Positions 1 to 10,212 of a stretch of 10,212 nucleotides of DNA are shown here, one piece after another. Below the pieces are notes generated by a model. It searched no databases and was not told the origin of the DNA. It was given only the letters and a program-made list of their open reading frames with translations. Within the stretch, counting starts at the first letter, position 1. Every line of letters starts with the position of its first letter. This DNA is from an uncultured bacterium (GTDB lineage: Bacteria; Krumholzibacteriota; Krumholzibacteriia; WVZY01; JAKEHA01), in NCBI GenBank assembly GCA_965372695.1, contig CBDVDJ010000049.1, positions 1-10,212 on the forward strand. Direction: 5' to 3'. A program made the translations under genes and the position numbers.

Positions 1-1
1 G

Positions 2-175
2 TTCCTGAGCGGTACGGCGCTTCGCAAGATGCTATCAGAAGGCGGCGACATTCCCGCGGAATTCAGCCGTCCCGAAGTACTGTCTATTCTCCGTGAGTAC
101 TACTCCGGCTTGACGGAGAAAGTGGACGTTAAGCTTCACGGTCACGCGACCGGTGATGCTGAAGCCAGGAAATAG
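2..175 (+). CDS. sat: Sulfate adenylyltransferase (ATP sulfurylase), C-terminal fragment; the 5' part lies outside the window
   Basis: Frame 2 is open from the window edge to TAG at 173-175. It translates to [37 protein letters not shown]..., which resembles the conserved C-terminal SGTxxRxML..G..P.EFSRPEV block of ATP sulfurylases. It lies directly upstream of aprBA, a common arrangement. Confidence 0.7.
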
Positions 176-256
176 CGGAGTGATACGTATCAACTAACGT
201 TAAGTTCAAGTGTTGGAGGAGCCAAAGGTAAATCCTAATGTACAAAGGAGGGTTTA

Positions 257-655
257 ATGCCTAGCTTCGTAATCACAGAGAAATGCGACGGGTGCAAGGC
301 GCTCGATAAGACGGCTTGCCAATACATCTGCCCGAATGACCTCATGGTCCTGGACAAGGACACGATGAAGGCTTTCAACCAGGATGTAGATATGTGCTGG
401 GAGTGCTATAGCTGCGTCAAGATTTGTCCGGTCCAGGCGATCGAGGTCCGTGGCTATGCTGATTTTGTGCCGATGGGCGCGAGCGTGACTCCGCTGCGGG
501 CAACCGACTCGATCATGTGGACCCTCAAGTTCCGAAACGGCATGCTGAAACGGTTCAAGTTCCCGATTCGCACTACCGAAGAGGGACAGGCGCAGCCATT
601 CGATCACTACCCGACGGGCGACGATGATCTCAAGAGCCAGACGCTCATGTGCTAG
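257..655 (+). CDS. aprB: Adenylylsulfate (APS) reductase beta subunit, 2x[4Fe-4S] ferredoxin-like
   Basis: The 132-aa ORF begins MPSFVITEKCDGCKALDKTACQYICPNDLMVLDKDTMKAFNQDVDMCWECYSCVKICPVQAIEVRGY, the characteristic AprB N-terminus with its Cys motifs. It continues with the MWTLKFRNG..RFKFPIRTT segment. A GGAGG Shine-Dalgarno at 247-251 lies 5 nt upstream of the ATG at 257. Confidence 0.95.
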   Translation: MPSFVITEKCDGCKALDKTACQYICPNDLMVLDKDTMKAFNQDVDMCWECYSCVKICPVQAIEVRGYADFVPMGASVTPLRATDSIMWTLKFRNGMLKRFKFPIRTTEEGQAQPFDHYPTGDDDLKSQTLMC

Positions 656-777
656 CCGGCTGGACTGAATACCGAAGTCGGCCCGGTCAAGATCGACAAG
701 ATCCTCACGCTCTAGTCGAGCGCAGGTTGTCTGACAACGAACCGATTCTTCGTCAACGAACCAAGGAGAAAGACGAA

Positions 778-2670
778 ATGGCGGAATTTGAAACTATAAC
801 GGTCGAAACAGACGTGCTGATTTGCGGCGGCGGCATGGCCGCCTGCGGCGCAGCGGTGGAAGCGTCTTATTGGGCCAAAAAGCAAGGATTGAAGGTCACA
901 TTGGTTGACAAGGCGGCAATGGACCGCTCGGGCGCCGTCGCGATGGGACTGTCGGCCATCAACCAGTATGTGGATCTGAACAGCGGTAACAACACTCTGA
1001 ACGACTACGCCGACTACGTCCGCAACGACCTCATGGGTATTACCCGCGAGGACCTGGTGGTCAGCATCGCGCGCCACGTAGACTCGTCGGTCCACTTGTT
1101 CGAGAAGTGGGGTCTGCCCATCTGGAAGGATCAGGAGGGCAAATACGTACACGAGGGTCGCTGGCAGCTGATGATCAACGGCGAGTCGTACAAGGTGATC
1201 GTGGCAGAAGCTGCCAAAACCGCGTTGGCAGAGGCAAATGGCGAATACTTCGAACGCGTATTCATCACTCATCCGCTGATGGACGGCGACACGTGTGTGG
1301 GCGCGATCGGCTTCAGCACGAGGGAGAACAAGATATACGTGTTCAAGGCCAAAGCCACGCTGGTTTCCATGGGTGGCGCGGTGCACGTGTTCAAGCCGCG
1401 GTCGACCGGTGAGGGCTTCGGCCGCTCCTGGTACCCGCCGTTCAACTCGGGCGCGAGCGCGTTCTTCACCATCTACGGCGGCGCCGAGATGACCTGCCAG
1501 GAAGTCCGGTTCATTCCTGTCCGCTTCAAGGACGCGTACGGACCCGTGGGCGCCTGGTTCCTGCTGTTCAAGTCGATCGCGACCAACGCGCAGGGCGGCA
1601 ACTACATGCAGGATAATGCCGCGGAGCTCGAAAAGTGGCTGCCTTACGGCAAGGTGAAGCCGCGTCCGGCCAACATTCGTAACTGGCTGATGATGCTGGA
1701 CGTGATGGAAGGCAAGAGCCCGATCTACATGCAGACGGCCGAAGCCATCCAGAGGATCTCCGACGCGGTGCCCGACGAGAAAGAGCGCAAGAAGAAGCTC
1801 AAGGAACTCGAGTCGGAGGCCTGGGAGGACTTTCTGGACATGACCATTTCGCAGGCCATCTTGTGGGCCGCGTCGAACGTCGAGCCCGAGAAACAGCCCT
1901 CCGAGATCATGGCGTGTGATCCTTACTTCATCGGTTCGCATTCCGGCGCGTCCGGCGCCTGGGTTTCGGGACCGGAGGATCTCCAGACATCCAATACCAA
2001 GGATGAATACTTCTGGGGCTACACGAACATGTGCACGGTCAAGGGCATGTTCGCCGCGGGCGACGCCTCGGGAGCCTCGAGCCACAAGTTCTCTTCCGGC
2101 TCGCACGCCGAGGGACGCATCGCTGCCAAGGCCATGGTCGCCTACGCCGTGGACAACAGCTCGCCGCCGAACGTGGACCAGGCCCAGATCGACGCGTTGA
2201 CCGCGGAGATCCTCAAGCCGCTCGAGACTTTCGAGAAGCACAAGGATGCGACGACCGACCCGAACATCAACCCGGAGTACATCCGACCCAAGCAGTTCAT
2301 GTACCGGCTGCAGAAGATCATGGATGAGTACGCCGGAGGTGTTTCGAGTCAGTTCAAGACGAGCGACAAACTCATCGAGAAGGGAATGGAGTTGTTGGCC
2401 TTCCTCAAGGAAGACTCGGCCAAAATCGGTGCGGAGAACCTGCACGAGCTCATGCGGGGCTGGGAGAACGTCCACCGCATGTACCAGGCGGATTCTCACA
2501 TGCGTTCCATCCTCTTCCGCGAGGAGACACGTTGGCCGGGCTACTACTTCCGGTCCGACAAACCGAGCATGGACAACGAGAACTGGCTCGCCTTCTGTAA
2601 CTGTACCTACGACAGGAACACTGGCGAGTGGGAGATGATCAAAAGGCCCGTTAAATACCTTACGCAGTAA
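778..2670 (+). CDS. aprA: Adenylylsulfate (APS) reductase alpha subunit, FAD flavoprotein
   Basis: The 630-aa product starts at ATG 778, in frame with track ORF 649..2670. AAGGAGA at 763-769 is a good RBS. The N-terminal FAD fold DVLICGGGMAACGAAVEAS is present, along with fumarate-reductase-family flavoprotein blocks (MGLSAINQYV, FAAGDASGASSHKFSSGSHAEGRIAAKA, RWPGYYFR). It immediately follows aprB. Confidence 0.95.
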   Translation: MAEFETITVETDVLICGGGMAACGAAVEASYWAKKQGLKVTLVDKAAMDRSGAVAMGLSAINQYVDLNSGNNTLNDYADYVRNDLMGITREDLVVSIARHVDSSVHLFEKWGLPIWKDQEGKYVHEGRWQLMINGESYKVIVAEAAKTALAEANGEYFERVFITHPLMDGDTCVGAIGFSTRENKIYVFKAKATLVSMGGAVHVFKPRSTGEGFGRSWYPPFNSGASAFFTIYGGAEMTCQEVRFIPVRFKDAYGPVGAWFLLFKSIATNAQGGNYMQDNAAELEKWLPYGKVKPRPANIRNWLMMLDVMEGKSPIYMQTAEAIQRISDAVPDEKERKKKLKELESEAWEDFLDMTISQAILWAASNVEPEKQPSEIMACDPYFIGSHSGASGAWVSGPEDLQTSNTKDEYFWGYTNMCTVKGMFAAGDASGASSHKFSSGSHAEGRIAAKAMVAYAVDNSSPPNVDQAQIDALTAEILKPLETFEKHKDATTDPNINPEYIRPKQFMYRLQKIMDEYAGGVSSQFKTSDKLIEKGMELLAFLKEDSAKIGAENLHELMRGWENVHRMYQADSHMRSILFREETRWPGYYFRSDKPSMDNENWLAFCNCTYDRNTGEWEMIKRPVKYLTQ

Positions 2671-2684
2671 GGGCCTGTGGGTTT

Positions 2685-2728
2685 GCGGGATCTTTGGGCG
2701 TCGCGTCGCGGCGTCCAGAGATCCCCGC
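2685..2728 (+). terminator. Imperfect GC-rich stem-loop 15 nt after the aprA stop; possible attenuating terminator or mRNA-stabilising hairpin
   Basis: The left arm GCGGGATCTTTGG (2685-2697) pairs with the right arm CCAGAGATCCCCGC (2715-2728), with one bulge and one mismatch, around a GC-rich loop. No clear U-tract follows, so it is not a textbook intrinsic terminator. Confidence 0.3.
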
Positions 2729-2852
2729 TCCCGACGCTTTGCAGTTATTCCCGTTCGAACGTCCGGATGTGTTACAGTACTGCGCGGCTGCGGCCGGGTG
2801 GTAACCGCTGTCAGGCCGGCACCTTGGGATTATTGATCTAGTGAGGAAACCG

Positions 2853-3137
2853 ATGGCAAAACACCCTGGAACCTGCACCCATTGTGGATCCCGTCTCGAG
2901 AAGTGGCGTGTTCCCGACGACGCTACCTGGGACGAGGAGTTTTTTTACGTCTGCTTCAACGATGATTGTTCCTACTACAAATCGGGGTGGGCCTGGATGA
3001 AGGAACGTTACAACCAGCGCGCTTCGTACCGGTATGCGGTCAACCCCGGTGCCGCCGTCTCACTGATGATACCGGTCTGGTCGGACTCCGCAACGCGGGA
3101 GATGATCGAGGAGCACACCGAAGGAGGCGAGGAATGA
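2853..3137 (+). CDS. Small four-Cys zinc-ribbon-like protein, aromatic-rich, function unknown
   Basis: Track ORF 2841..3137. I prefer ATG 2853 as the start because GAGGA at 2843-2847 lies 5 nt upstream. The 94-aa product has C8-x2-C11-x22-C34-x4-C39 (CTHC...CFNDDC), followed by a W/Y-rich segment (SYYKSGWAWMKERYNQRASYRY) and an acidic tail. Its TGA stop overlaps the next gene's ATG (ATGA at 3134-3137). Confidence 0.65.
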   Translation: MAKHPGTCTHCGSRLEKWRVPDDATWDEEFFYVCFNDDCSYYKSGWAWMKERYNQRASYRYAVNPGAAVSLMIPVWSDSATREMIEEHTEGGEE

Positions 3138-4021
3138 GCGACGACAAGGATCCCGCCCAGTCCAATGACCAGCTCGATAAGCTGAAGGAGAAGATAGTCA
3201 CGGATTATCCCCGGCTGGGCCCTGACGACAACTTCCAGTTCGGGTGTCATCCCGGCGTTTCGTGTTTCAACCAGTGCTGCGGCGACGTAAACATTTTCCT
3301 GTCTCCGTACGACGTGTTGCGCATGAAGAAACGTCTCGATATGACCTCGAGCGAGTTCCTCGAGAAGTATACATTTCTCCCTGTGCAAAAGGACATGAAG
3401 ACGCCCGTGGTTGTGTTGCGCTTGAACGACGACGAGGCCAAGACCTGTCAGTTCCTTACCGAGGGGGGGTGCGGCATCTATTCGGATCGGCCGTGGCCCT
3501 GCCGCATGTATCCCCTGGGACTGGCGGCTCAGAAGGACACGCCGGACGGCTGGCGCGGCGACCGGTTTTACTTCCTCATGGAAGAGGAGGGGTGCAAGGG
3601 GTTCAGCGAGCCCAGGGAGTGGACGGTCCGACAGTGGCTCGAAGATCAGGGGCTCGAGGAGTACGACGAGTGGGGAGAGGCATTCAAGGAATTGACGCTT
3701 CACAAATTCTTCGAGGACGGTGGCACCCTCTCACCGGAGAGGATGCACATGATGTACACCGCGTGCTACGATCTGGACAAGTTTCGGGAGTTCGTGTTCG
3801 AAAGCACGCTCCTGCAGAAATTCGTGGTGGATGAGGACTTCGTGGAAGAGATGCGCTATGACGACGAAGTATTGCTTCGTTTCGCGTTTCTGTGGCTGCG
3901 GTTCAGTCTTTTCGGCGAGAAGACTGTGCAAGTGAAAGCGGACGTCGTCGAGTCGTTCAAGGGAAAACGCGACAAGAAGGGATCGTTCGATCAGAAGTCG
4001 GCGGGGAATACTCCTGAATAA
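3134..4021 (+). CDS. Extended YkgJ/UPF0153-family (CxxCxxCC-type) cysteine-cluster protein, paralog 1
   Basis: The start is taken at ATG 3134, with AAGGAGG at 3121-3127 upstream. The longer track ORF from 2966 would overlap the zinc-ribbon gene. The 295-aa product has the N-terminal cluster CHPGVSCFNQCC, then KTCQFL..GGCGIYSDRPWPCRMYPLG, the typical family core, plus CKG. It has a roughly 150-aa C-terminal extension ending in the LWLRFSLFGEKT motif. Confidence 0.8.
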   Translation: MSDDKDPAQSNDQLDKLKEKIVTDYPRLGPDDNFQFGCHPGVSCFNQCCGDVNIFLSPYDVLRMKKRLDMTSSEFLEKYTFLPVQKDMKTPVVVLRLNDDEAKTCQFLTEGGCGIYSDRPWPCRMYPLGLAAQKDTPDGWRGDRFYFLMEEEGCKGFSEPREWTVRQWLEDQGLEEYDEWGEAFKELTLHKFFEDGGTLSPERMHMMYTACYDLDKFREFVFESTLLQKFVVDEDFVEEMRYDDEVLLRFAFLWLRFSLFGEKTVQVKADVVESFKGKRDKKGSFDQKSAGNTPE

Positions 4022-4091
4022 AATAGATGATGAGTGGACACGGGTCGACGGAACAAGATCAAGACAAGGGTGATCGGCGGCGCGATCAGGT

Positions 4092-4931
4092 ATGAGGGAA
4101 ATCGAACGGCTGAAGAAGGAGATCCTCGAGCACTACCCCAAGCTCAAAAAGGACGATTCGTATTCGTTCTCCTGCCATCCGGGCGTACCTTGCTTCAACG
4201 CATGTTGCGCGGACGTCAATATTTTCCTGACTCCATACGATATTCTCAGGTTGAAGAACAATCTCGGGATGAGTTCGGACGAATTTCTTTCCAGACATAC
4301 AGTATCCCCGTTCGACAAAAATTTGAAGTACCCGGCAGTTCAGCTGGCGATGAACGACGACGACGAGAAAACGTGTCCGTTCGTCGGCGAACGCGGCTGC
4401 GGGGTCTACGAGGACCGGCCCTGGGCGTGCCGGATGTATCCGCTGGGTATGGGGTCGCAGAAGGACTCCGGCACCGGCGCCGAAAGTGACTTCTATTTTC
4501 TGCTCGAGGAGGACGTGTGCAAGGGGCACGACGAAGACCACAAGCAGACGGTGGCACAGTGGCTGGAGACTCAGGGGATCGCCGAGTACGACAAGATGGG
4601 ATACTACTTCAAGGAACTGACTCTTCACGAGTATTTCCAGACCGGCGAGAATCTCACCGGCCAGAAGATCGAGATGTTCTTCACGGCGAGTTATGACCTG
4701 GACAAGTTCAGGAGCTTTTTGTTCGACACCACGTTTTTCGACAAGTTTGAAGTCGATGAAGAGACGCAGAAGAAAATCAAGTCCGACGACGTCGAACTGC
4801 TCAAATTCGGGTATTTCTGGTTGAGATTCTCTCTTTTCGGAGAGCGAACGTTGAAGGTCAAGGGAGACGTGCTCGAAGCGCGGCAGAAAAGGCTGGAAGG
4901 CAAGAAGAAGCTGGAACAGAAACAGAACTAG
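4092..4931 (+). CDS. Extended YkgJ/UPF0153-family (CxxCxxCC-type) cysteine-cluster protein, paralog 2
   Basis: This 279-aa ORF is collinear with paralog 1 along its whole length: CHPGVPCFNACC, KTCPFV..RGCGVYEDRPWACRMYPLG, CKG, and FWLRFSLFGERT. ATG 4092 is the first start after an in-frame TGA at 4071. The Shine-Dalgarno is weak. Confidence 0.8.
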   Translation: MREIERLKKEILEHYPKLKKDDSYSFSCHPGVPCFNACCADVNIFLTPYDILRLKNNLGMSSDEFLSRHTVSPFDKNLKYPAVQLAMNDDDEKTCPFVGERGCGVYEDRPWACRMYPLGMGSQKDSGTGAESDFYFLLEEDVCKGHDEDHKQTVAQWLETQGIAEYDKMGYYFKELTLHEYFQTGENLTGQKIEMFFTASYDLDKFRSFLFDTTFFDKFEVDEETQKKIKSDDVELLKFGYFWLRFSLFGERTLKVKGDVLEARQKRLEGKKKLEQKQN

Positions 4932-4957
4932 ACCGGGGCGATCGGTTGCCGCCGGTC
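4931..4957 (+). other. Intercistronic GC-rich stem-loop between paralog 2 and the membrane cytochrome b gene
   Basis: GACCGGGGC (4931-4939) pairs with GCCGCCGGTC (4948-4957), with one bulge, around the loop GATCGGTT. It starts at the last base of the TAG stop. No U-tract follows. Confidence 0.25.
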
Positions 4958-4988
4958 CGAATCACCACAACGCGATGCGAGGTTCCCT

Positions 4989-5918
4989 ATGAGTGGACTG
5001 CAGCTGCTGATGTACGGTGCCTATGCCGTTTTTTTCATAGGTACGGCGTACAGGGCCTACCGGATGGCGACGATGCCCATGCATCTCCGTTGGGATCTGT
5101 ATCCGATACCGCACGAAAAGGGCAAAGCGGATTACGGCGGTTCATACTACGAAGAAATCGACTGGTGGACAAAACCCGCGAAGGTGTCTGTTTCCAACGA
5201 GTTGAAGGAAATGGCCAGGGAAATCATCTTTATCCAGTCGATGTACCACAATAACCGGTCCCTCTGGATGTTTTCGTTCCCATTTCATTTTGGACTCTAT
5301 TTATCAATCGTATTCGTTCTGCTGGTTTTTCTGGGGGGACTGCTCACGCTGCTCGGAGTACCGGTGTCCGCCGAATCGGCCAATATCTTCGGGAAAGCCC
5401 TGCACTACATTACGATGCCGTTCGGAATCGTGGGCGCCGTTATGGGTGCGTTCGGCGCTCTGGGATTGTTTGTCAGCCGATTCGCCAGGGGCGAACTGCG
5501 AAGGACGTCGGTCTGGACCGATTACTTCAACCTGATTCTGCTCTTCGCCATCTTCGCCAGCGGTCTCGCCGTCTGGGCGACGGAAGACATTTCGTACTCC
5601 GCCTTGAGGGTGTTCATCACGGATTTGATCTCCTTCAAAGGCACGCCCGCTGTGTCTACGGGTTTTGCCGTCCACATGGCGCTGGCGGCTGCGTTCCTGA
5701 TCTACCTTCCCTTTACGCACATGACCCACTTTGTGGGCAAGTACTTCACCTACCACAAGGTGCGATGGGAAGACCAGCCCAACATCAGGGGCAGCAAACT
5801 CGAAAAGCGGATCAACGAGGCGCTTGGTTACCATATCGACTGGTCGGCTCCCCACATTAAAGAGGGAACGTGGGCCGAAGCGGCAACTGCAACCGAGGAG
5901 AAGACCGAAAGTGAGTAA
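4989..5918 (+). CDS. NarI/DsrM/HmeC-like integral membrane di-haem cytochrome b (nitrate reductase gamma-subunit family)
   Basis: The 309-aa product has about 5 hydrophobic helices: LLMYGAYAVFFIGTAY, LWMFSFPFHFGLYLSIVFVLLVFLGG, ITMPFGIVGAVMGAFGALGLFV, YFNLILLFAIFASGLAVWA and FAVHMALAAAFLIYLPF. The N-terminal YRxxRMxxMPMHLRWDLYPIPHE block and the C-terminal LPFTHMTHFVGKYF block are typical of DsrM/HmeC/NarI-like proteins. Candidate haem-ligand His residues sit in helices 2 and 5. GAGG at 4979-4982 is a plausible RBS. Confidence 0.8.
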   Translation: MSGLQLLMYGAYAVFFIGTAYRAYRMATMPMHLRWDLYPIPHEKGKADYGGSYYEEIDWWTKPAKVSVSNELKEMAREIIFIQSMYHNNRSLWMFSFPFHFGLYLSIVFVLLVFLGGLLTLLGVPVSAESANIFGKALHYITMPFGIVGAVMGAFGALGLFVSRFARGELRRTSVWTDYFNLILLFAIFASGLAVWATEDISYSALRVFITDLISFKGTPAVSTGFAVHMALAAAFLIYLPFTHMTHFVGKYFTYHKVRWEDQPNIRGSKLEKRINEALGYHIDWSAPHIKEGTWAEAATATEEKTESE

Positions 5919-7536
5919 TGACGACAACAACAAGAAAACGACGATAAAGGAGTTCTGCCGCCGGAAAGGGCAGATCGTCAAGCTCGACGTCTCCGAGTTT
6001 CCGCCTTTGCCGCCGCCGTACGACAAACTCGACCTCGAGCCCGGAATCAAGGAGCTCTCGGACGAGTTGAAGGAGAAGTACGAAACGGATCTGGACGGCG
6101 TTTCGGCGCTCAAACTCCCCCGTCCCGAGACGGAGGAAGAAAAGCGCGAGCTGGTCCAGAGTTTCCTGACGGGACTCAAAAAGACTTTCGAGCGGGAAAA
6201 CAACTGGGGATTCCTGCAGCCGTTGTTTCTGACGATCGAGTACTGCGCGAAGTGCCAGACGTGTTCCAGGGCATGCCCTATTTATAACGAATCGGGTCAC
6301 GAGGAGATTTATCGGCCGACGTTTCGCGCCGATATACTCCGGCGCCTGTACAAAAAGTACGTACGACCGGGGGGCAAGATCCTCTCGAAGATCTCGGGGG
6401 AGGACATCGACGCCAGCTGGACGATGATTGCCCGGCTGATGGAGCTGAGTTATCGCTGCACCGTTTGCCGCCGCTGCGCGCAGACGTGCCCGATCGGCGT
6501 TGACAACGGGCTGGTGACGCGTGAACTCCGCAAGATCTTCAGCCAGGAGATGGGAATCCAGGTCGAGCAGCTGCACAAGAAGGGTTCCGTCCAGCAGCTG
6601 AAGTCGGGGTCCAGTACGGGCATGACGCCGGTCGCGTTTCTCGACAACATCGAGTTCCTCGAGGAGGAAGTCGAGGAGCGGACGGGGATGGAGTTCAAGT
6701 GGCCGATGGACAAGTCGGGCGCCGACATTCTGCTCATCCACAACGCGGGCGAGTACCTGGCGTGGCCGGAAAACCCCGAGGCGTTTGCCATCATTCTCGA
6801 GGCGGCCGGTATCGACTATACCCTGTCCAGTGACCTGCTCGGATACGACAGCGTCAATTACGGGGTGTGGTATGACGACGTGCAGTTCGCAAAGGTGGCG
6901 CTCAAACACGTCGAGATCGCCAAGAAGCTCGGTGTCAGAAAGATCGTCCTCGGCGAATGCGGTCACGCGCACAAGGCTCTCACCGTGATCGCCGACCGCG
7001 TGTTCTCCGGAGATTATAATATTCCCCGGGAGAGCTCGCTGACACTTCTGCGCGATATCATAAAGGAAAAAAGGATCAAGGTCGATCCGGCTCGCAACGA
7101 CGACATCATCACGACGCTTCATGATCCGTGCAACCTCACGCGGCTGATGGGGATCGTGGAGCCGCAGCGCGAAGTGATCAAGGCGGTATGCAATAACTTC
7201 CGGGAGATGACGCCCCACGGCGTCCACAACTACTGCTGCGGAGGCGGAAGCGGGTTTGCGATAACCGCCAACACCAACTTCCCCGACTGGCGTACGAGCG
7301 TAGCCGCCCGCGTCAAGCTGCGCCAGATCCTGGACGTGTTCCAGGATGTCATCAAACCGGATCAGAAGAAGTACGTTTGTGCACCCTGCTCGAACTGCAA
7401 GGGAGCCATTCGCGACACACTGGCGGCCTACGGCGTGTACGAGAGATGTAACATCCTGTATGGCGGCCTGGTAGAACTCATCGTCAACGCGATGGTCGAC
7501 GTTCCCGAGGGATTTCTCGAGTGGGAATGGCACTAA
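5911..7536 (+). CDS. DsrK/HmeD/HdrD-like iron-sulfur protein (two ferredoxin-type [4Fe-4S] motifs plus a CCG cysteine-rich domain)
   Basis: Two CxxCxxCxxxCP motifs are present (CAKCQTCSRACP and CTVCRRCAQTCP). The C-terminal CCG domain reads HDPCNLTR...NYCCGGGSG...CAPCSNC. GECGHAHK is a degenerate N-terminal CCG-like segment, as in DsrK-type proteins. The start is assigned to GTG 5911, with GAGGAG at 5895-5900 upstream, giving 541 aa and an 8-nt overlap (GTGAGTAA) with the upstream gene. The track start at 5731 would overlap that gene by 188 nt. The exact start is uncertain. Confidence 0.85.
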   Translation: MSNDDNNKKTTIKEFCRRKGQIVKLDVSEFPPLPPPYDKLDLEPGIKELSDELKEKYETDLDGVSALKLPRPETEEEKRELVQSFLTGLKKTFERENNWGFLQPLFLTIEYCAKCQTCSRACPIYNESGHEEIYRPTFRADILRRLYKKYVRPGGKILSKISGEDIDASWTMIARLMELSYRCTVCRRCAQTCPIGVDNGLVTRELRKIFSQEMGIQVEQLHKKGSVQQLKSGSSTGMTPVAFLDNIEFLEEEVEERTGMEFKWPMDKSGADILLIHNAGEYLAWPENPEAFAIILEAAGIDYTLSSDLLGYDSVNYGVWYDDVQFAKVALKHVEIAKKLGVRKIVLGECGHAHKALTVIADRVFSGDYNIPRESSLTLLRDIIKEKRIKVDPARNDDIITTLHDPCNLTRLMGIVEPQREVIKAVCNNFREMTPHGVHNYCCGGGSGFAITANTNFPDWRTSVAARVKLRQILDVFQDVIKPDQKKYVCAPCSNCKGAIRDTLAAYGVYERCNILYGGLVELIVNAMVDVPEGFLEWEWH

Positions 7537-7555
7537 CCGCGCGGAGGGACCTATT

Positions 7556-7930
7556 GTGGCCAAGAAAATCCTGATTGTAGACGACGAAGCCGACGTCAGA
7601 ACTTATCTGGAAGTACTGTTCCAGGAAAACGGGTACGAAACCGCGGTAGCCGCCGACGGCGACGAGGCGATGCCGAAAGTTCATGAGTTCAAACCGGACC
7701 TGATCTCTCTCGACATCATCATGCCGCGCGAGAGCGGCCAGAAATTTTACCGCACGCTGGTAAAAGACGCGGAGTTCGGCAAAACACCCGTCATTATCTG
7801 CAGTGGTGTAACGCGCTACAAAGAGCTGTTCTCGCGCGACCACAAGACGATGCCCAAACCGTTTGCCTTCATCGAGAAACCGATCGACAAAGGCGAACTC
7901 CTGGGCAAAATCAAGGAAGCCATCGGGTAG
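7556..7930 (+). CDS. Single-domain CheY-like response regulator receiver (no output domain)
   Basis: This 124-aa product has a GTG start with GGAGGG at 7543-7548 upstream. All canonical receiver residues are present: DD (9-10) in KILIVDDE, the phospho-acceptor D53 in LISLDIIMP, S83 in IICSG, and K108 in FIEKP. It starts 19 nt after the DsrK-like stop. Confidence 0.9.
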   Translation: MAKKILIVDDEADVRTYLEVLFQENGYETAVAADGDEAMPKVHEFKPDLISLDIIMPRESGQKFYRTLVKDAEFGKTPVIICSGVTRYKELFSRDHKTMPKPFAFIEKPIDKGELLGKIKEAIG

Positions 7931-7939
7931 CGCCGTGAT

Positions 7940-7961
7940 GGCCCGGGGCGCCACCCCGGCC
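7940..7961. terminator. GC-rich hairpin between convergent genes (possible bidirectional terminator)
   Basis: GGCC(C)GGGG (7940-7948) pairs with CCCCGGCC (7954-7961) around the loop CGCCA, giving an 8-bp G/C stem with one bulge. It sits in the 34-nt gap between the receiver gene stop (7930) and the SPFH gene stop (7965). There are no flanking U/A tracts. Confidence 0.4.
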
Positions 7962-7964
7962 TCG

Positions 7965-9113
7965 TCACGCTGCTTCCGGACCTTCGGCGGCGGCGGTTCC
8001 GGCGGCGGAGCCGGCGTCTGTCCCGGTATCCCCGGGCAGGTCGGCCGTCTTTGCGAGCGCCGTCAGGCCGCCCAGAACACCCAACCCCATCGATTCGACC
8101 GCTGATGACGGTACGATGATCATCGACCCCTTCTGCCGCAACCCCTCGTAGACCATGTTCATCGCGCGCAGGTGCAAAGCGACCGGATTGTCCTGGTAGT
8201 GGTAGGCGGCGGCGGCGAATTTTTCGGCGATCTCGGTCTCGGCGGTGCCGAGGATGATCCGGCTCTGGCGTTCGCGTTCCGCCTGCGCCTGTCGTGACAT
8301 CGCGTCTTCGAGGCCTTTGGGTATCACGATGTCGCGGATCTCGACGTCCTGGGTGGTGACACCCCACGCGTTGGTTTTTTTGTCGAGGAGCTTCTGGATC
8401 TCGGAGCCGAGACGGTCCCGTTCCGACAGCAGGGTGGCGAGGTCGTTTTTTCCGATCGCGTTACGCAGCGCCGTCTGCGCCGACAGGATGACGGCGTCCT
8501 CGAAATGCTCGACTTCGAGTACGGACTTCTGCGCGTCCCACACCATCCAGAACGCGATCGCGTCGACGCTGACCGGCACCGTGTCCGCCGTCAGCGTTGT
8601 CTCGGCGCTGAAGTCGGTGACGCGGATTCGCTGGTCTACGAACTGGGCGACTTTGTCGATGACGGGAATGACGGCGAAGAGCCCCGACGACCGTATCGCC
8701 TTGAATTTGCCAAATCGCAGCACGACGGCGCGTTCCCATTGATAAGCGATCTGCACAGACGTCGACACCAGTACTGCGACGGTGATGGTGACGAGTAACA
8801 CGTCGTCCAGCGGCCGCATGACGAGGTACGCGATGAAACAGTCCGCCGTGGCGAGCACGACGACGGCTTCCCATATCTGTGTGAGCCGTATCAAGCCCGC
8901 CAGGATAAGCGCCGATCCGAGAAACAACGCAACGGCGTCCGCGCTGAAGCCATGGAGGCGGAGGTGGACGATCAGGCCGGCGACGAACAGTGCCACCAGC
9001 AGCAGAACGTTCAGGGGTGCAAACCTGAAATCGGCCCTCATGGTGGCGGCAAAGCGTTCCAGTGAAATACCGGGTACCGATCGGCCTTCAGCCGTTTTTA
9101 CGGATCCAGTCAT
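7965..9113 (-). CDS. SPFH/band-7 (stomatin/prohibitin-like) protein with a polytopic N-terminal membrane region
   Basis: This 382-aa product has about four N-terminal hydrophobic helices. A canonical SPFH core follows: ERAVVLRFGKFKAIRSSGLFAVIPVIDKV..., DAIAFWMVWDAQKSV, ALRNAIGKNDLATLLSERD, VEIRDIVIPKGLEDAMSRQAQAERERQSRIILG, and a C-terminal Ala/Gly-rich tail. AAGGAG on the minus strand (9127-9122) lies 8 nt upstream of the ATG. Confidence 0.9.
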   Translation of the reverse strand: MTGSVKTAEGRSVPGISLERFAATMRADFRFAPLNVLLLVALFVAGLIVHLRLHGFSADAVALFLGSALILAGLIRLTQIWEAVVVLATADCFIAYLVMRPLDDVLLVTITVAVLVSTSVQIAYQWERAVVLRFGKFKAIRSSGLFAVIPVIDKVAQFVDQRIRVTDFSAETTLTADTVPVSVDAIAFWMVWDAQKSVLEVEHFEDAVILSAQTALRNAIGKNDLATLLSERDRLGSEIQKLLDKKTNAWGVTTQDVEIRDIVIPKGLEDAMSRQAQAERERQSRIILGTAETEIAEKFAAAAYHYQDNPVALHLRAMNMVYEGLRQKGSMIIVPSSAVESMGLGVLGGLTALAKTADLPGDTGTDAGSAAGTAAAEGPEAA

Positions 9114-9487
9114 GACGACGACTCCTTTCGTTGCCGCAGTCCTTCCAGCACATCGTCGAGCATGAGCCCGTAGCTGGAAGCGCGAGCCATTAGTTCGGTC
9201 AAAATCTGATCGAGCATTCTCTGTTTTTCCAGCCGGTCGATCTCCGGCTTGCGGCTGCCGATAAAAGTCCCCGAGCCCTGTTGTGTGTCGAGCGTTCCTT
9301 CGATTTCGAGTTCGCGGTACGCGCGCACCACTGTGTTCGGGTTGATCGCGAGTTCGACGGCGAGCTGGCGAACCGTCGGCAGGCGGTCTCCGGGGCCAAG
9401 CTCGCCGCTGGCAATGCCGAACTTGATCTGTTCGATAATCTGCCGGTAGAACGGCACGCCGCTCTTGTTATCCAGAATAAATCCCAT
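9110..9487 (-). CDS. GntR-family transcriptional regulator, YtrA-like subfamily (short effector/dimerisation domain)
   Basis: This 125-aa product has a winged-HTH block PFYRQIIEQIKFGIASGELGPGDRLPTVRQLAVELAINPNTVVRAYRELEIEGTLDTQQGSGTFI, followed by only about 50 aa, as in the YtrA subfamily. GGAG (9499-9496) lies 8 nt upstream of the ATG. Its stop overlaps the SPFH gene start (ATGA at 9113-9110). Confidence 0.9.
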   Translation of the reverse strand: MGFILDNKSGVPFYRQIIEQIKFGIASGELGPGDRLPTVRQLAVELAINPNTVVRAYRELEIEGTLDTQQGSGTFIGSRKPEIDRLEKQRMLDQILTELMARASSYGLMLDDVLEGLRQRKESSS

Positions 9488-9506
9488 AGGCTCATCTCCG
9501 TTTATC

Positions 9507-9540
9507 GTACTATAAGACTAGTGTACTAGCATTATAGTAC
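9507..9540. promoter_or_regulatory. 34-nt near-perfect palindrome; candidate operator for the adjacent GntR/YtrA-like repressor
   Basis: The sequence is GTACTATAAGACTAGTGTACTAGCATTATAGTAC. The outer 9-nt arms GTACTATAA and TTATAGTAC are perfectly complementary, and 28 of 34 positions are symmetric. GTACTA/TAGTAC hexamers occur at 9507, 9523 and 9535. The element overlaps the -10 hexamer and the predicted transcription start. Confidence 0.6.
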
Positions 9541-9558
9541 AATATGAGAGTGTGTCAA
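9531..9558 (-). promoter_or_regulatory. Consensus sigma70-type promoter for the gntR-SPFH operon
   Basis: On the minus strand, TTGACA (9558-9553) is followed by a 16-nt spacer and TATAAT (9536-9531). Both hexamers match consensus exactly. The predicted start is about 35-40 nt upstream of the gntR ATG at 9487. Confidence 0.65.
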
Positions 9559-9636
9559 CCCCCGGGCGGAAATATAATCATAACCTATGTTATTATAAGC
9601 GGTTATCAGGCATGGCTGTTCGACGTGCCCGCGGGA

Positions 9637-10212
9637 TCAGTGTTTCGTCAGGATGTGTTTGACGTCTTTTATATAAATGACGTATCGGCCCTGGTAGGGG
9701 TCGAATTCGCCATAGGCGAGGTAGTTCCCGTCCGGCGACCACGCGGGATACTGGGCAAACTGGGTGTCGAAGGTCAGCTGGACCTCGTCGGTCCCGTCGG
9801 GGTTGCGCATGTACACCTTGCCGCCCCGGCAGAACGCGATCGTATCATAGGGCCGGTTCCAGTCGGGATGGACGCAGGCCTCTCCGTAAGGCGTGATGGC
9901 GACTTCGTTGCCGCCGTATCTCGGCATGACGATGATCTGCGCGCCGTTTAGCCCGGGATGCGTGCGCTGAAACGCGATACGGTGTCCAAGGATCCCCCAC
10001 GTGGGGTGGAAATCGCCGTTGCCGCTGGACACCTTGATGAGTCCCGAAGATTCGAGTAGATATATGTAGTAAACGACGCCGCCATGGGCGAGCGTGTCGG
10101 CCTTGGAGAAGGCGAGTTTCCCCGTAGCGCCCGGAGGAGCCACGGCCACCTCGAAATCCTTCTGTTCAGTGTTGGTTACCGGCGCCTCCCAGCTGATCGC
10201 ACCCGTATAAAT
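9637..10212 (-). CDS. PD40/TolB-like beta-propeller repeat protein, C-terminal part; the 5' part lies outside the window
   Basis: The minus-strand frame stays open from the TGA stop at 9639-9637 to the window edge. The track's 'M' at 10149 is an internal GTG, and the codons upstream read IYTGAISWEAPVTNTEQKDFEV with no stop. It contains the canonical PD40 motif YPAWSPDGNYLAY and degenerate repeats (HPTWGILGHRIAF, HPDWNRPYDTIAF). Confidence 0.6.
   Translation of the reverse strand: MYTGAISWEAPVTNTEQKDFEVAVAPPGATGKLAFSKADTLAHGGVVYYIYLLESSGLIKVSSGNGDFHPTWGILGHRIAFQRTHPGLNGAQIIVMPRYGGNEVAITPYGEACVHPDWNRPYDTIAFCRGGKVYMRNPDGTDEVQLTFDTQFAQYPAWSPDGNYLAYGEFDPYQGRYVIYIKDVKHILTKH

Follow-up and report, generated by a model that had tools for sequence, protein, structure and literature searches.

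Through in silico analysis of a 10,212-nt stretch of DNA from an uncultured bacterium of the Krumholzibacteriota (contig CBDVDJ010000049.1, positions 1 to 10,212; the window in what follows), a 94-residue protein, here called Zn94, has been investigated, which is encoded directly downstream of the genes of the dissimilatory reductase of adenosine 5'-phosphosulfate (APS), aprB and aprA. Judged by its genes, the window of 10.2 kb is a locus of dissimilatory sulfur metabolism. In the reading preferred here, held with slightly less than even confidence, Zn94 would serve as a metal-ribbon adaptor, produced along with an Fe-S protein of the YkgJ type with eight cysteines, and the two would form an uncharacterised accessory module of the path from quinol to APS reductase. 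We infer this function of the Zn94/YkgJ pair from genomic context only. Electron delivery to dissimilatory APS reductase is a long-standing gap in the description of sulfate respiration and sulfur oxidation, and the pair is inserted exactly at the apr/qmo junction, co-translated with QmoA, in lineages represented only by metagenome-assembled genomes (MAGs): Gemmatimonadota, Planctomycetota, Acidobacteriota, Ignavibacteriota, Latescibacterota, Zixibacteria and some Desulfobacterota. The elements concerned are the following:

2671-2852: spacer between aprA and the Zn94 gene, 182 nt
2683-2728, forward strand: predicted RNA stem-loop of 20 bp between aprBA and the downstream genes (fold of 2668-2856)
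2843-2847, forward strand: GAGGA, read from the sequence as the Shine-Dalgarno sequence of Zn94; distance to the ATG 5 nt
2853-3137, forward strand: Zn94, the gene under study, a putative acidic Cys4 metal-ribbon protein of 94 aa (C8, C11, C34, C39)
3120-3127, forward strand: Shine-Dalgarno sequence GAAGGAGG of the YkgJ-like gene, inside the E-G-G codons of the Zn94 tail
3134-3137, forward strand: ATGA stop/start overlap of Zn94 and YkgJ-like paralog 1
3134-4021, forward strand: YkgJ-type Cys-cluster protein, paralog 1, 295 aa; PF03692 (CxxCxxCC) at 36.5 bits against a cut-off of 23
4092-4931, forward strand: YkgJ-type Cys-cluster protein, paralog 2, 279 aa; PF03692 at 38.4 bits against a cut-off of 23

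The gene neighbourhood has been compared through a genome scan with one genome per species, which gave 53 loci, all of them from MAGs, belonging to Gemmatimonadota, Planctomycetota, Latescibacterota, Desulfobacterota ("delta proteobacterium") and Chitinivibrionia. The aprA gene, or its 3' end, lies directly upstream of Zn94 in 51 of the 53 (one other locus is too short), as it does in all additional apr-type loci that were fetched. About 60 loci, representing at least eight phyla, share the gene order aprB, aprA, conserved hairpin, Zn94, YkgJ-like; a tblastn search with the window proteins found aprB-aprA-Zn94-YkgJ in every locus with enough sequence, and the YkgJ-like gene adjoins Zn94 in every apr-type locus for which the same is true. 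The sole true exception is a Gemmatimonadota chromosome (L027; CP070812.1, 2231-17336) with the order Zn94-YkgJ-qmoABC-sat and no preceding aprBA, where four TPR-repeat genes stand upstream of Zn94 instead. The same arrangement is retained by divergent members, whose identity is only 34-48%: a Thermoanaerobaculaceae MAG (L056), an Ignavibacteriaceae MAG (L057), the contigs L058 and L059, a MAG labelled Gammaproteobacteria (L064), and L066/67, in which dsrAB follow.

Behind the YkgJ-like gene, qmoA-qmoB-qmoC(-sat) are found in 52 loci and qmoC directly in 4; the pair occurs with aprBA and with qmoC alone in L019, L057 and L066. In three loci (the window, its sister contig L001, and L065) a second YkgJ paralog follows, and then a DsrM2K2-like pair. 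L065 additionally carries a qmoC-like gene on the opposite strand, upstream of sat, and because of this gene the lineage of the window cannot be called Qmo-less. Zn94 and the YkgJ-like protein move as one unit, whichever neighbour is lost. An earlier reading of the window, made from the sequence alone (the sequence-only reading), had asked whether the small gene tracks with aprBA or with the two YkgJ-like genes. The first kind of tracking is borne out by the loci given above; as to the second, a YkgJ-like neighbour is constant, but the tandem of paralogs is restricted to the window, L001 and L065, all other loci having a single copy. Identity to the window in the other genome loci amounts to 59-77% for Zn94 (94% in L001), 64-79% for YkgJ and 74-90% for AprB.

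The second line of evidence concerns the junctions between the genes. The stop codon of Zn94 (TGA, 3135-3137) overlaps the ATG of the YkgJ-like gene (3134-3136), and the translational coupling to the first Cys-cluster paralog, which the sequence-only reading had suggested from this ATGA, is a recurrent property: a 4-nt overlap (ATGA or GTGA) is present in 47 of 59 loci, and an overlap of 1 or 8 nt in 6 more. The YkgJ-like gene and qmoA likewise share 4 nt at stop and start in 39 of 52 loci (e.g., L054, 10282-12440). In most lineages Zn94 is the first gene of an overlapping chain, Zn94, YkgJ, QmoA. Among the 47 loci having the 4-nt overlap there are 39 in which a Shine-Dalgarno-like motif of the YkgJ-like gene (GAAGGAG) is embedded in the tail of Zn94, within its E-G codons. 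This embedded signal would impose a dual-coding constraint, owing to which the near-invariant EG and the acidic C-terminus of Zn94 would be conserved in part; the conservation of the tail may to that extent reflect the nucleotides and is not necessarily a feature of the protein.

Zn94 itself is a real, constrained gene. In the list of open reading frames (ORFs) it extends over 2841-3137 (forward strand) with 98 aa from a GTG, and the ATG at 2853 is the fifth codon, giving 94 aa. The start at 2853 is favoured over the GTG at 2841, which falls within the ribosome-binding site that the sequence-only reading had noted; in addition, the aligned Met is the first residue of every 94-aa homolog. The cysteine codons are located at 2874-2876, 2883-2885, 2952-2954 and 2967-2969, and they yield the pattern C-x2-C-x22-C-x4-C at residues 8, 11, 34 and 39. 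The description of the protein as W/Y-rich with an acidic C-terminus also holds, as the aromatic residues comprise 5 W, 6 Y and 3 F (15%) and the tail reads EEHTEGGEE. The isoelectric point (pI) is 4.98 and the net charge is -6; across the clade the pI ranges from 4.2 to 5.6 and is uniformly acidic.

A word-indexed search has identified 277 homologous proteins at E<=1e-3; the 120 listed among them are 64-95% identical to the query and nearly all of about 94 aa. An exhaustive profile search returned 233 clusters at 50% identity (127 at E<=1e-10), and a search with divergent members added 550 more homologs. In an alignment of 20 sequences the four cysteines and about 27 other positions are invariant, including W18, W26, F31, F35, Y41, W46, W48 and the C-terminal P-V-W-S-x-x-A-T-R-E-M-I. 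Members of only 34-48% identity still keep the cysteines, W26, N36, D37, G45, W46 and S58-Y59-R60. The ratio of nonsynonymous to synonymous substitution rates against five orthologs, 0.11-0.30, indicates purifying selection. The sequence-only reading had staked its idea on the conservation of the Cys ligands and of the neighbourhood, and both are conserved.

The partner, YkgJ paralog 1, contains eight invariant cysteines: C38, C44, C48, C49, C105, C113, C123 and C154. They are arranged as C-x5-C-x3-CC followed by four single residues and are kept in orthologs down to 40% identity, which fits the binding of Fe-S clusters by this putative redox protein. Paralog 2 is 52% identical to paralog 1 and retains all eight, with Ser at one non-ligand Cys position. 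The possibility that the YkgJ-like protein belongs to the CCG type of HdrB and DsrK has been rejected: hhalign against the DsrK-like protein of the window gave a probability of 0.2%, and no Pfam CCG match was obtained. A search of solved structures with the YkgJ profile found no relative, and the NCBIfam models gave for the YkgJ-like proteins only a DNA-invertase family at 12.6 bits against a cut-off of 222.

The third element of the arrangement is the hairpin in front of the pair, and Zn94 is, as had been noted before, the first gene after it. In the window it begins 13 nt past the aprA stop and has no T-run behind it, and a terminator scan of the window called nothing at its position. Of 46 aprA-Zn94 spacers, 45 contain a stem of 10 pairs or more, which usually begins 10-20 nt past the aprA stop. 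From 25 loci RNAalifold derived a consensus of 15 pairs, and 11 of these show compensatory changes; the sequence core is CTTCGGGCGYCGC...GCGGCGCCCGAAG; an Rfam search with the hairpin matched no family. A T-run follows the hairpin in few loci only (L008, L050 and L052). Judging by these features, the hairpin is probably an attenuator (partial terminator) or an mRNA-stability element, and as an additional element of the locus it may set the ratio of Apr to Qmo expression. Owing to it, we would expect Zn94-YkgJ-qmoABC to be expressed at a lower level than aprBA, and Zn94 to belong to the expression unit of the qmo side. Because of the coupled chain to qmoA and of the hairpin that separates aprBA, the tie of Zn94 to Qmo is no weaker than that to AprB. 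The docking onto AprB considered in the sequence-only reading, next to a rubredoxin-like carrier and an assembly factor, would have to share its place with this tie to Qmo.

According to the proposed mechanism, Zn94 would be a cytoplasmic protein, translated with the downstream eight-Cys, presumably Fe-S, YkgJ-type protein and most likely complexed with it, and the pair would act as an accessory module of electron input into dissimilatory APS reductase. The AlphaFold2 model of Zn94, with a predicted local distance difference test (pLDDT) score of 82, has ribbon strands at residues 14-19 and 30-34 and two helices, one at 40-53 and a short one at 78-82, with a beta-hairpin (58-75) between them. 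No solved structure matched this model, and sequence searches of solved structures, both with Zn94 alone and with its profile, gave nothing meaningful. The Cys4 site would be structural, probably with Zn, and would hold the ribbon, helix and beta-hairpin fold together. The invariant aromatic surface and the C-terminal PVWSxxATREMI helix could then clamp the Fe-S partner to a neighbour, AprB or QmoA, while the YkgJ clusters would serve as an electron relay between AprB and the quinol oxidoreductase in the membrane. In the lineage of the window the chain continues instead with the second YkgJ paralog and a quinol-oxidising pair of the DsrM2K2 type. We likewise infer complex formation, metal identity, docking partner and any role of Zn94 in electron transfer.

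The known electron-input partners of AprBA are QmoABC and AprM. The pair is encoded in the same operon and co-translated with QmoA, and a role in the same electron path is therefore plausible. QmoA, QmoB, QmoC and AprM nevertheless share no domain with Zn94 or the YkgJ-like protein; Qmo possesses flavin and haem domains, whereas the pair is soluble and lacks them. Searches with Pfam found no FAD, Fer4, FlpD or NarI-type domains in either protein, so that these are not homologs of QmoA, QmoB or QmoC. DsrD, a small accessory protein of dissimilatory sulfite reductase, has a fold that suggested DNA binding; an action on the sulfite reductase itself has since been reported. It is a precedent only: like Zn94 it is a small protein of a dissimilatory sulfur operon, but it is a winged helix and Zn94 a zinc ribbon, without relation in sequence or fold.

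In purified form QmoABC binds AprAB with no detectable electron transfer, and a third partner has been proposed (Ramos et al. 2012, PMC3333476). A more specific form of the preferred reading, in which Zn94 and the YkgJ-type protein are unrecognised redox or adaptor subunits that complete the path from a quinol oxidoreductase (QmoABC or DsrM2K2) to APS reductase, is regarded as doubtful; if it were true, the third partner missing from the purified QmoABC and AprAB would have a concrete candidate in the pair. In this case Zn94 might bear an Fe(Cys)4 centre with redox activity.

The literature contains no name or function for the pair that could be found, and only two passing mentions of conserved hypothetical genes. 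In Ca. Thermonerobacter thiotrophicus two conserved hypothetical genes are located between aprA and qmoC (Thiel et al. 2019, PMC6338057), which is the position of the pair in the Ignavibacteriaceae MAG L057 (sat-aprB-aprA-Zn-YkgJ-qmoC). For peatland Acidobacteria, "syntenic genes" of unknown function have been described, and, according to the locus tags, there is room for 2-3 genes from aprA to qmoA (Hausmann et al. 2018, PMC6018796). Neither paper analyses the sequences of these genes. To judge from position and taxonomy, the genes of both are very probably the same pair.

Several points weigh against the reading of the pair as an accessory electron-input module. The sole curated family match of Zn94 is to a transcription-factor zinc finger (PF04606), and the position in the operon would suit an assembly or maturation factor equally well. 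In well-studied sulfate reducers, aprBA are generally known to be directly followed by qmoABC. Green sulfur bacteria also have aprBA directly followed by qmoABC, without the pair (PMC6338057). Because such operons exist, the pair is not a general requirement for electron transfer from Qmo to Apr; it is a lineage-specific addition and not a universal requirement. The existence of divergent relatives without YkgJ or apr, and of fusions to methyltransferases, marks the Zn94 domain as a generic module that is not intrinsically part of a redox chain. Finally, the AlphaFold2 model of YkgJ paralog 1 is of poor quality, with a pLDDT of 56 that falls below 50 across the Cys region, and for this reason its cofactor content is deduced from Cys conservation alone.

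Among the rival explanations, an assembly or maturation factor survives best, although it is judged still less probable than the doubtful subunit reading. The pair would then act transiently, for instance in the insertion of Fe-S clusters or flavin adenine dinucleotide (FAD) or as a chaperone of AprB or QmoA, and would stay outside the working complex. The position behind the hairpin, implying expression below that of AprBA, is in keeping with such a role, as is the absence from some well-studied aprBA-qmoABC operons (PMC6338057), which would be expected of a lineage-specific helper, and so is the constancy of the pair, whatever partner genes a locus contains. The serial 4-nt overlaps from Zn94 through YkgJ to QmoA, however, suggest stoichiometric co-production, which is more typical of subunits; the pair is conserved about as strongly as the enzyme partners, and neither protein matches a known maturation family in Pfam or NCBIfam.

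It is improbable, to a somewhat greater degree, that Zn94 is a rubredoxin-like carrier, with a Cys4 site that binds Fe, cycles between Fe(II) and Fe(III) and relays single electrons from the YkgJ or Qmo clusters to AprB. The four invariant cysteines form two knuckles and the gene is surrounded by redox genes; rubredoxin-type potentials, moreover, lie near the APS/sulfite and menaquinone couples (couples as quoted in PMC3333476). What Zn94 has in common with rubredoxins and small zinc-ribbon proteins is a small metal site of four Cys in two knuckles, the first of the form C-x-x-C-G, to which the C-T-H-C-G of Zn94 conforms (C-P-H-C-G in most relatives). In rubredoxin both knuckles have the form C-x-x-C-G or C-P-x-C-G; the second one of Zn94 differs, being C-F-N-D-D-C with C-x4-C spacing. 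Among the rubredoxin family models, Pfam gave no rubredoxin match at E<=0.1, and the NCBIfam rubrerythrin-like domain reached 12.4 bits, below its cut-off of 32.

The explanation that Zn94 is an activator of the Ogr/Delta type, which binds DNA and/or RNA polymerase and turns on the apr-qmo genes, is very improbable, even though it is the one that automatic annotation implies. The sequence-only reading had not recognised a family; Pfam does place Zn94 in one, since residues 7-50 match PF04606 (Ogr/Delta-like zinc finger) over profile positions 1-44 of 47, with a score of 29.9 bits, just above the gathering cut-off, which is 26.3. The family is matched at E<=0.01 by 9 of 11 diverse members, P2 Ogr itself counted. 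Many relatives of Zn94 are without a precomputed PF04606 match, and NCBI names relatives ogr/Delta-like. A comparison with P2 Ogr (sequence taken from AF063097) reveals the same Cys spacing, C4, C7, C30 and C35 being in register with C8, C11, C34 and C39, and in both proteins a second knuckle of the form C-x-N-x-x-C-S.

The likeness ends with the spacing of the ribbon. The Ogr/Delta consensus, C-x2-C-x3-A-x2-R ... C-x4-C-x3-F, is not retained, as A11, R14 and F39 of P2 Ogr correspond in Zn94 to an invariant L15, an invariant W18 and a variable K43. P2 Ogr is basic (pI 8.84), in contrast to the acidic Zn94, and the 45 residues behind the ribbon of Zn94 are unrelated to it. Profile comparison against P2 Ogr with hhalign gave probabilities of 1.4% (alignment A1) and 8.8% (divergent alignment A2), and P2 Ogr matches phrog_603 at 1.3e-28, while Zn94 does not match this family at E<=0.1. 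P2 Ogr and P4 Delta, which activate late genes, occur in a phage context, Zn94 in a sulfur-respiration operon and not in a prophage. No relatives of Zn94 were found among 2.9 million viral contigs (searched with patterns of the close clade) or in 50,697 phage records, and among the viral folds of BFVD the best match was no better than E 0.65.

The promoters targeted by Ogr/Delta activators carry a TGT-N12-ACA dyad. Two matches to it are present in the window, both within coding sequence, where 1.4 are expected by chance; there are none in the aprA-Zn94 spacer and none upstream of aprB, within the 256 nt of upstream sequence. Translational coupling to a Cys-cluster protein and to QmoA would also be unusual for a regulator. 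Zn94 has been rejected as a functional Ogr/Delta protein on the disagreement of residues, charge, profile, PHROG and phage context. The ogr/Delta-like annotation, which implies a phage regulator, is probably misleading, and the present finding corrects this automatic label.

The domain of Zn94 is found beyond the apr-linked clade. Distant relatives are fused, N- or C-terminally, to an S-adenosylmethionine (SAM)-dependent methyltransferase in at least 7 representative clusters, and the domain looks like a portable binding module, with the apr-linked clade as one large specialisation. From these fusions, and from the flagellin lysine methylase FliB, which we assume to be a member of PF03692, one might derive a protein-modifying system in which Zn94 recognises the substrate, AprBA or Qmo, and the YkgJ-type protein carries out the modification, but this is the least credible of the explanations, as the apr-linked pair has no methyltransferase domain, NCBIfam lends the YkgJ-like proteins no support, and eight invariant cysteines better suit cluster binding.

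Among the fusion partners of the distant relatives there is no Rosetta-stone link to YkgJ or Apr. One divergent relative has a LarC-type gene on one side and a glutamine amidotransferase gene on the other, and another adjoins a transglutaminase-like gene. The methyltransferase fusions include P0156, P0174, P0201, P0207, P0234 and P0240 (also P0159); other fusions combine the domain with HEAT repeats and a zinc ribbon (P0173, P0189, P0210), with a lipocalin-like domain (P0212) or with HisKA (P0165). Stand-alone divergent members in non-sulfur contexts are represented by L062 and L068.

The remaining genes of the window are as follows:

257-655, forward strand: aprB, APS reductase beta subunit, 132 aa with a short C-terminal tail; NCBIfam TIGR02060 at 206.6 bits against a cut-off of 135.65
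775-2670, forward strand: aprA, APS reductase alpha subunit, 631 aa; NCBIfam TIGR02061 at 866.6 bits against a cut-off of 641.75
4989-5918, forward strand: DsrM/NarI-type membrane cytochrome b (dsrM2-like); Pfam Nitrate_red_gam at 51.2 bits
about 5914-7536, forward strand: DsrK/HdrD-type Fe-S/CCG protein (dsrK2-like); Pfam Fer4_8 and CCG
7556-7930, forward strand: CheY-type receiver, a single-domain response regulator
7965-9113, reverse strand: Band-7 gene
9110-9487, reverse strand: GntR gene

The AprB of the window has a Pfam APS-reductase_C match and aligns to residues 1-131 of the 150-aa AprB of A. fulgidus. It ends about 19 residues short of the C-terminus of that protein and about 38 residues short of that of D. 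gigas AprB (a chain of 166 residues). A C-terminally truncated AprB has been discussed as a marker of sulfur disproportionation, which is now doubted (PMC12998232). The closest solved relative of AprA is A. fulgidus AprA (1jnr_A, 762 bits). The list of ORFs lets aprA start further upstream, with a GTG at 649 (673 aa), so that it runs into the end of aprB; the ATG at 775 (631 aa), and not this GTG, is backed by the family alignment.

The DsrM-like/DsrK-like pair (4989-7536) resembles the dsrM2K2 paralogs that have been described next to aprBA in Acidobacteria (Hausmann et al. 2018, PMC6018796). Against the NCBIfam models, the dsrM2-like protein scores 40.4 bits with DsrM, far under the equivalog cut-off of 300, and the dsrK2-like protein 335.6 bits with DsrK, under the cut-off of 400. 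DsrK-like genes 58-60% identical to that of the window are present near aprBA in L011 and L031, and DsrM-like genes of 42-43% identity in L011 and L037. The CheY-type gene directly follows the DsrK-like gene; it is 97% conserved in L001 and present in L065, and weaker receiver-domain genes are located upstream of aprB in several other loci.

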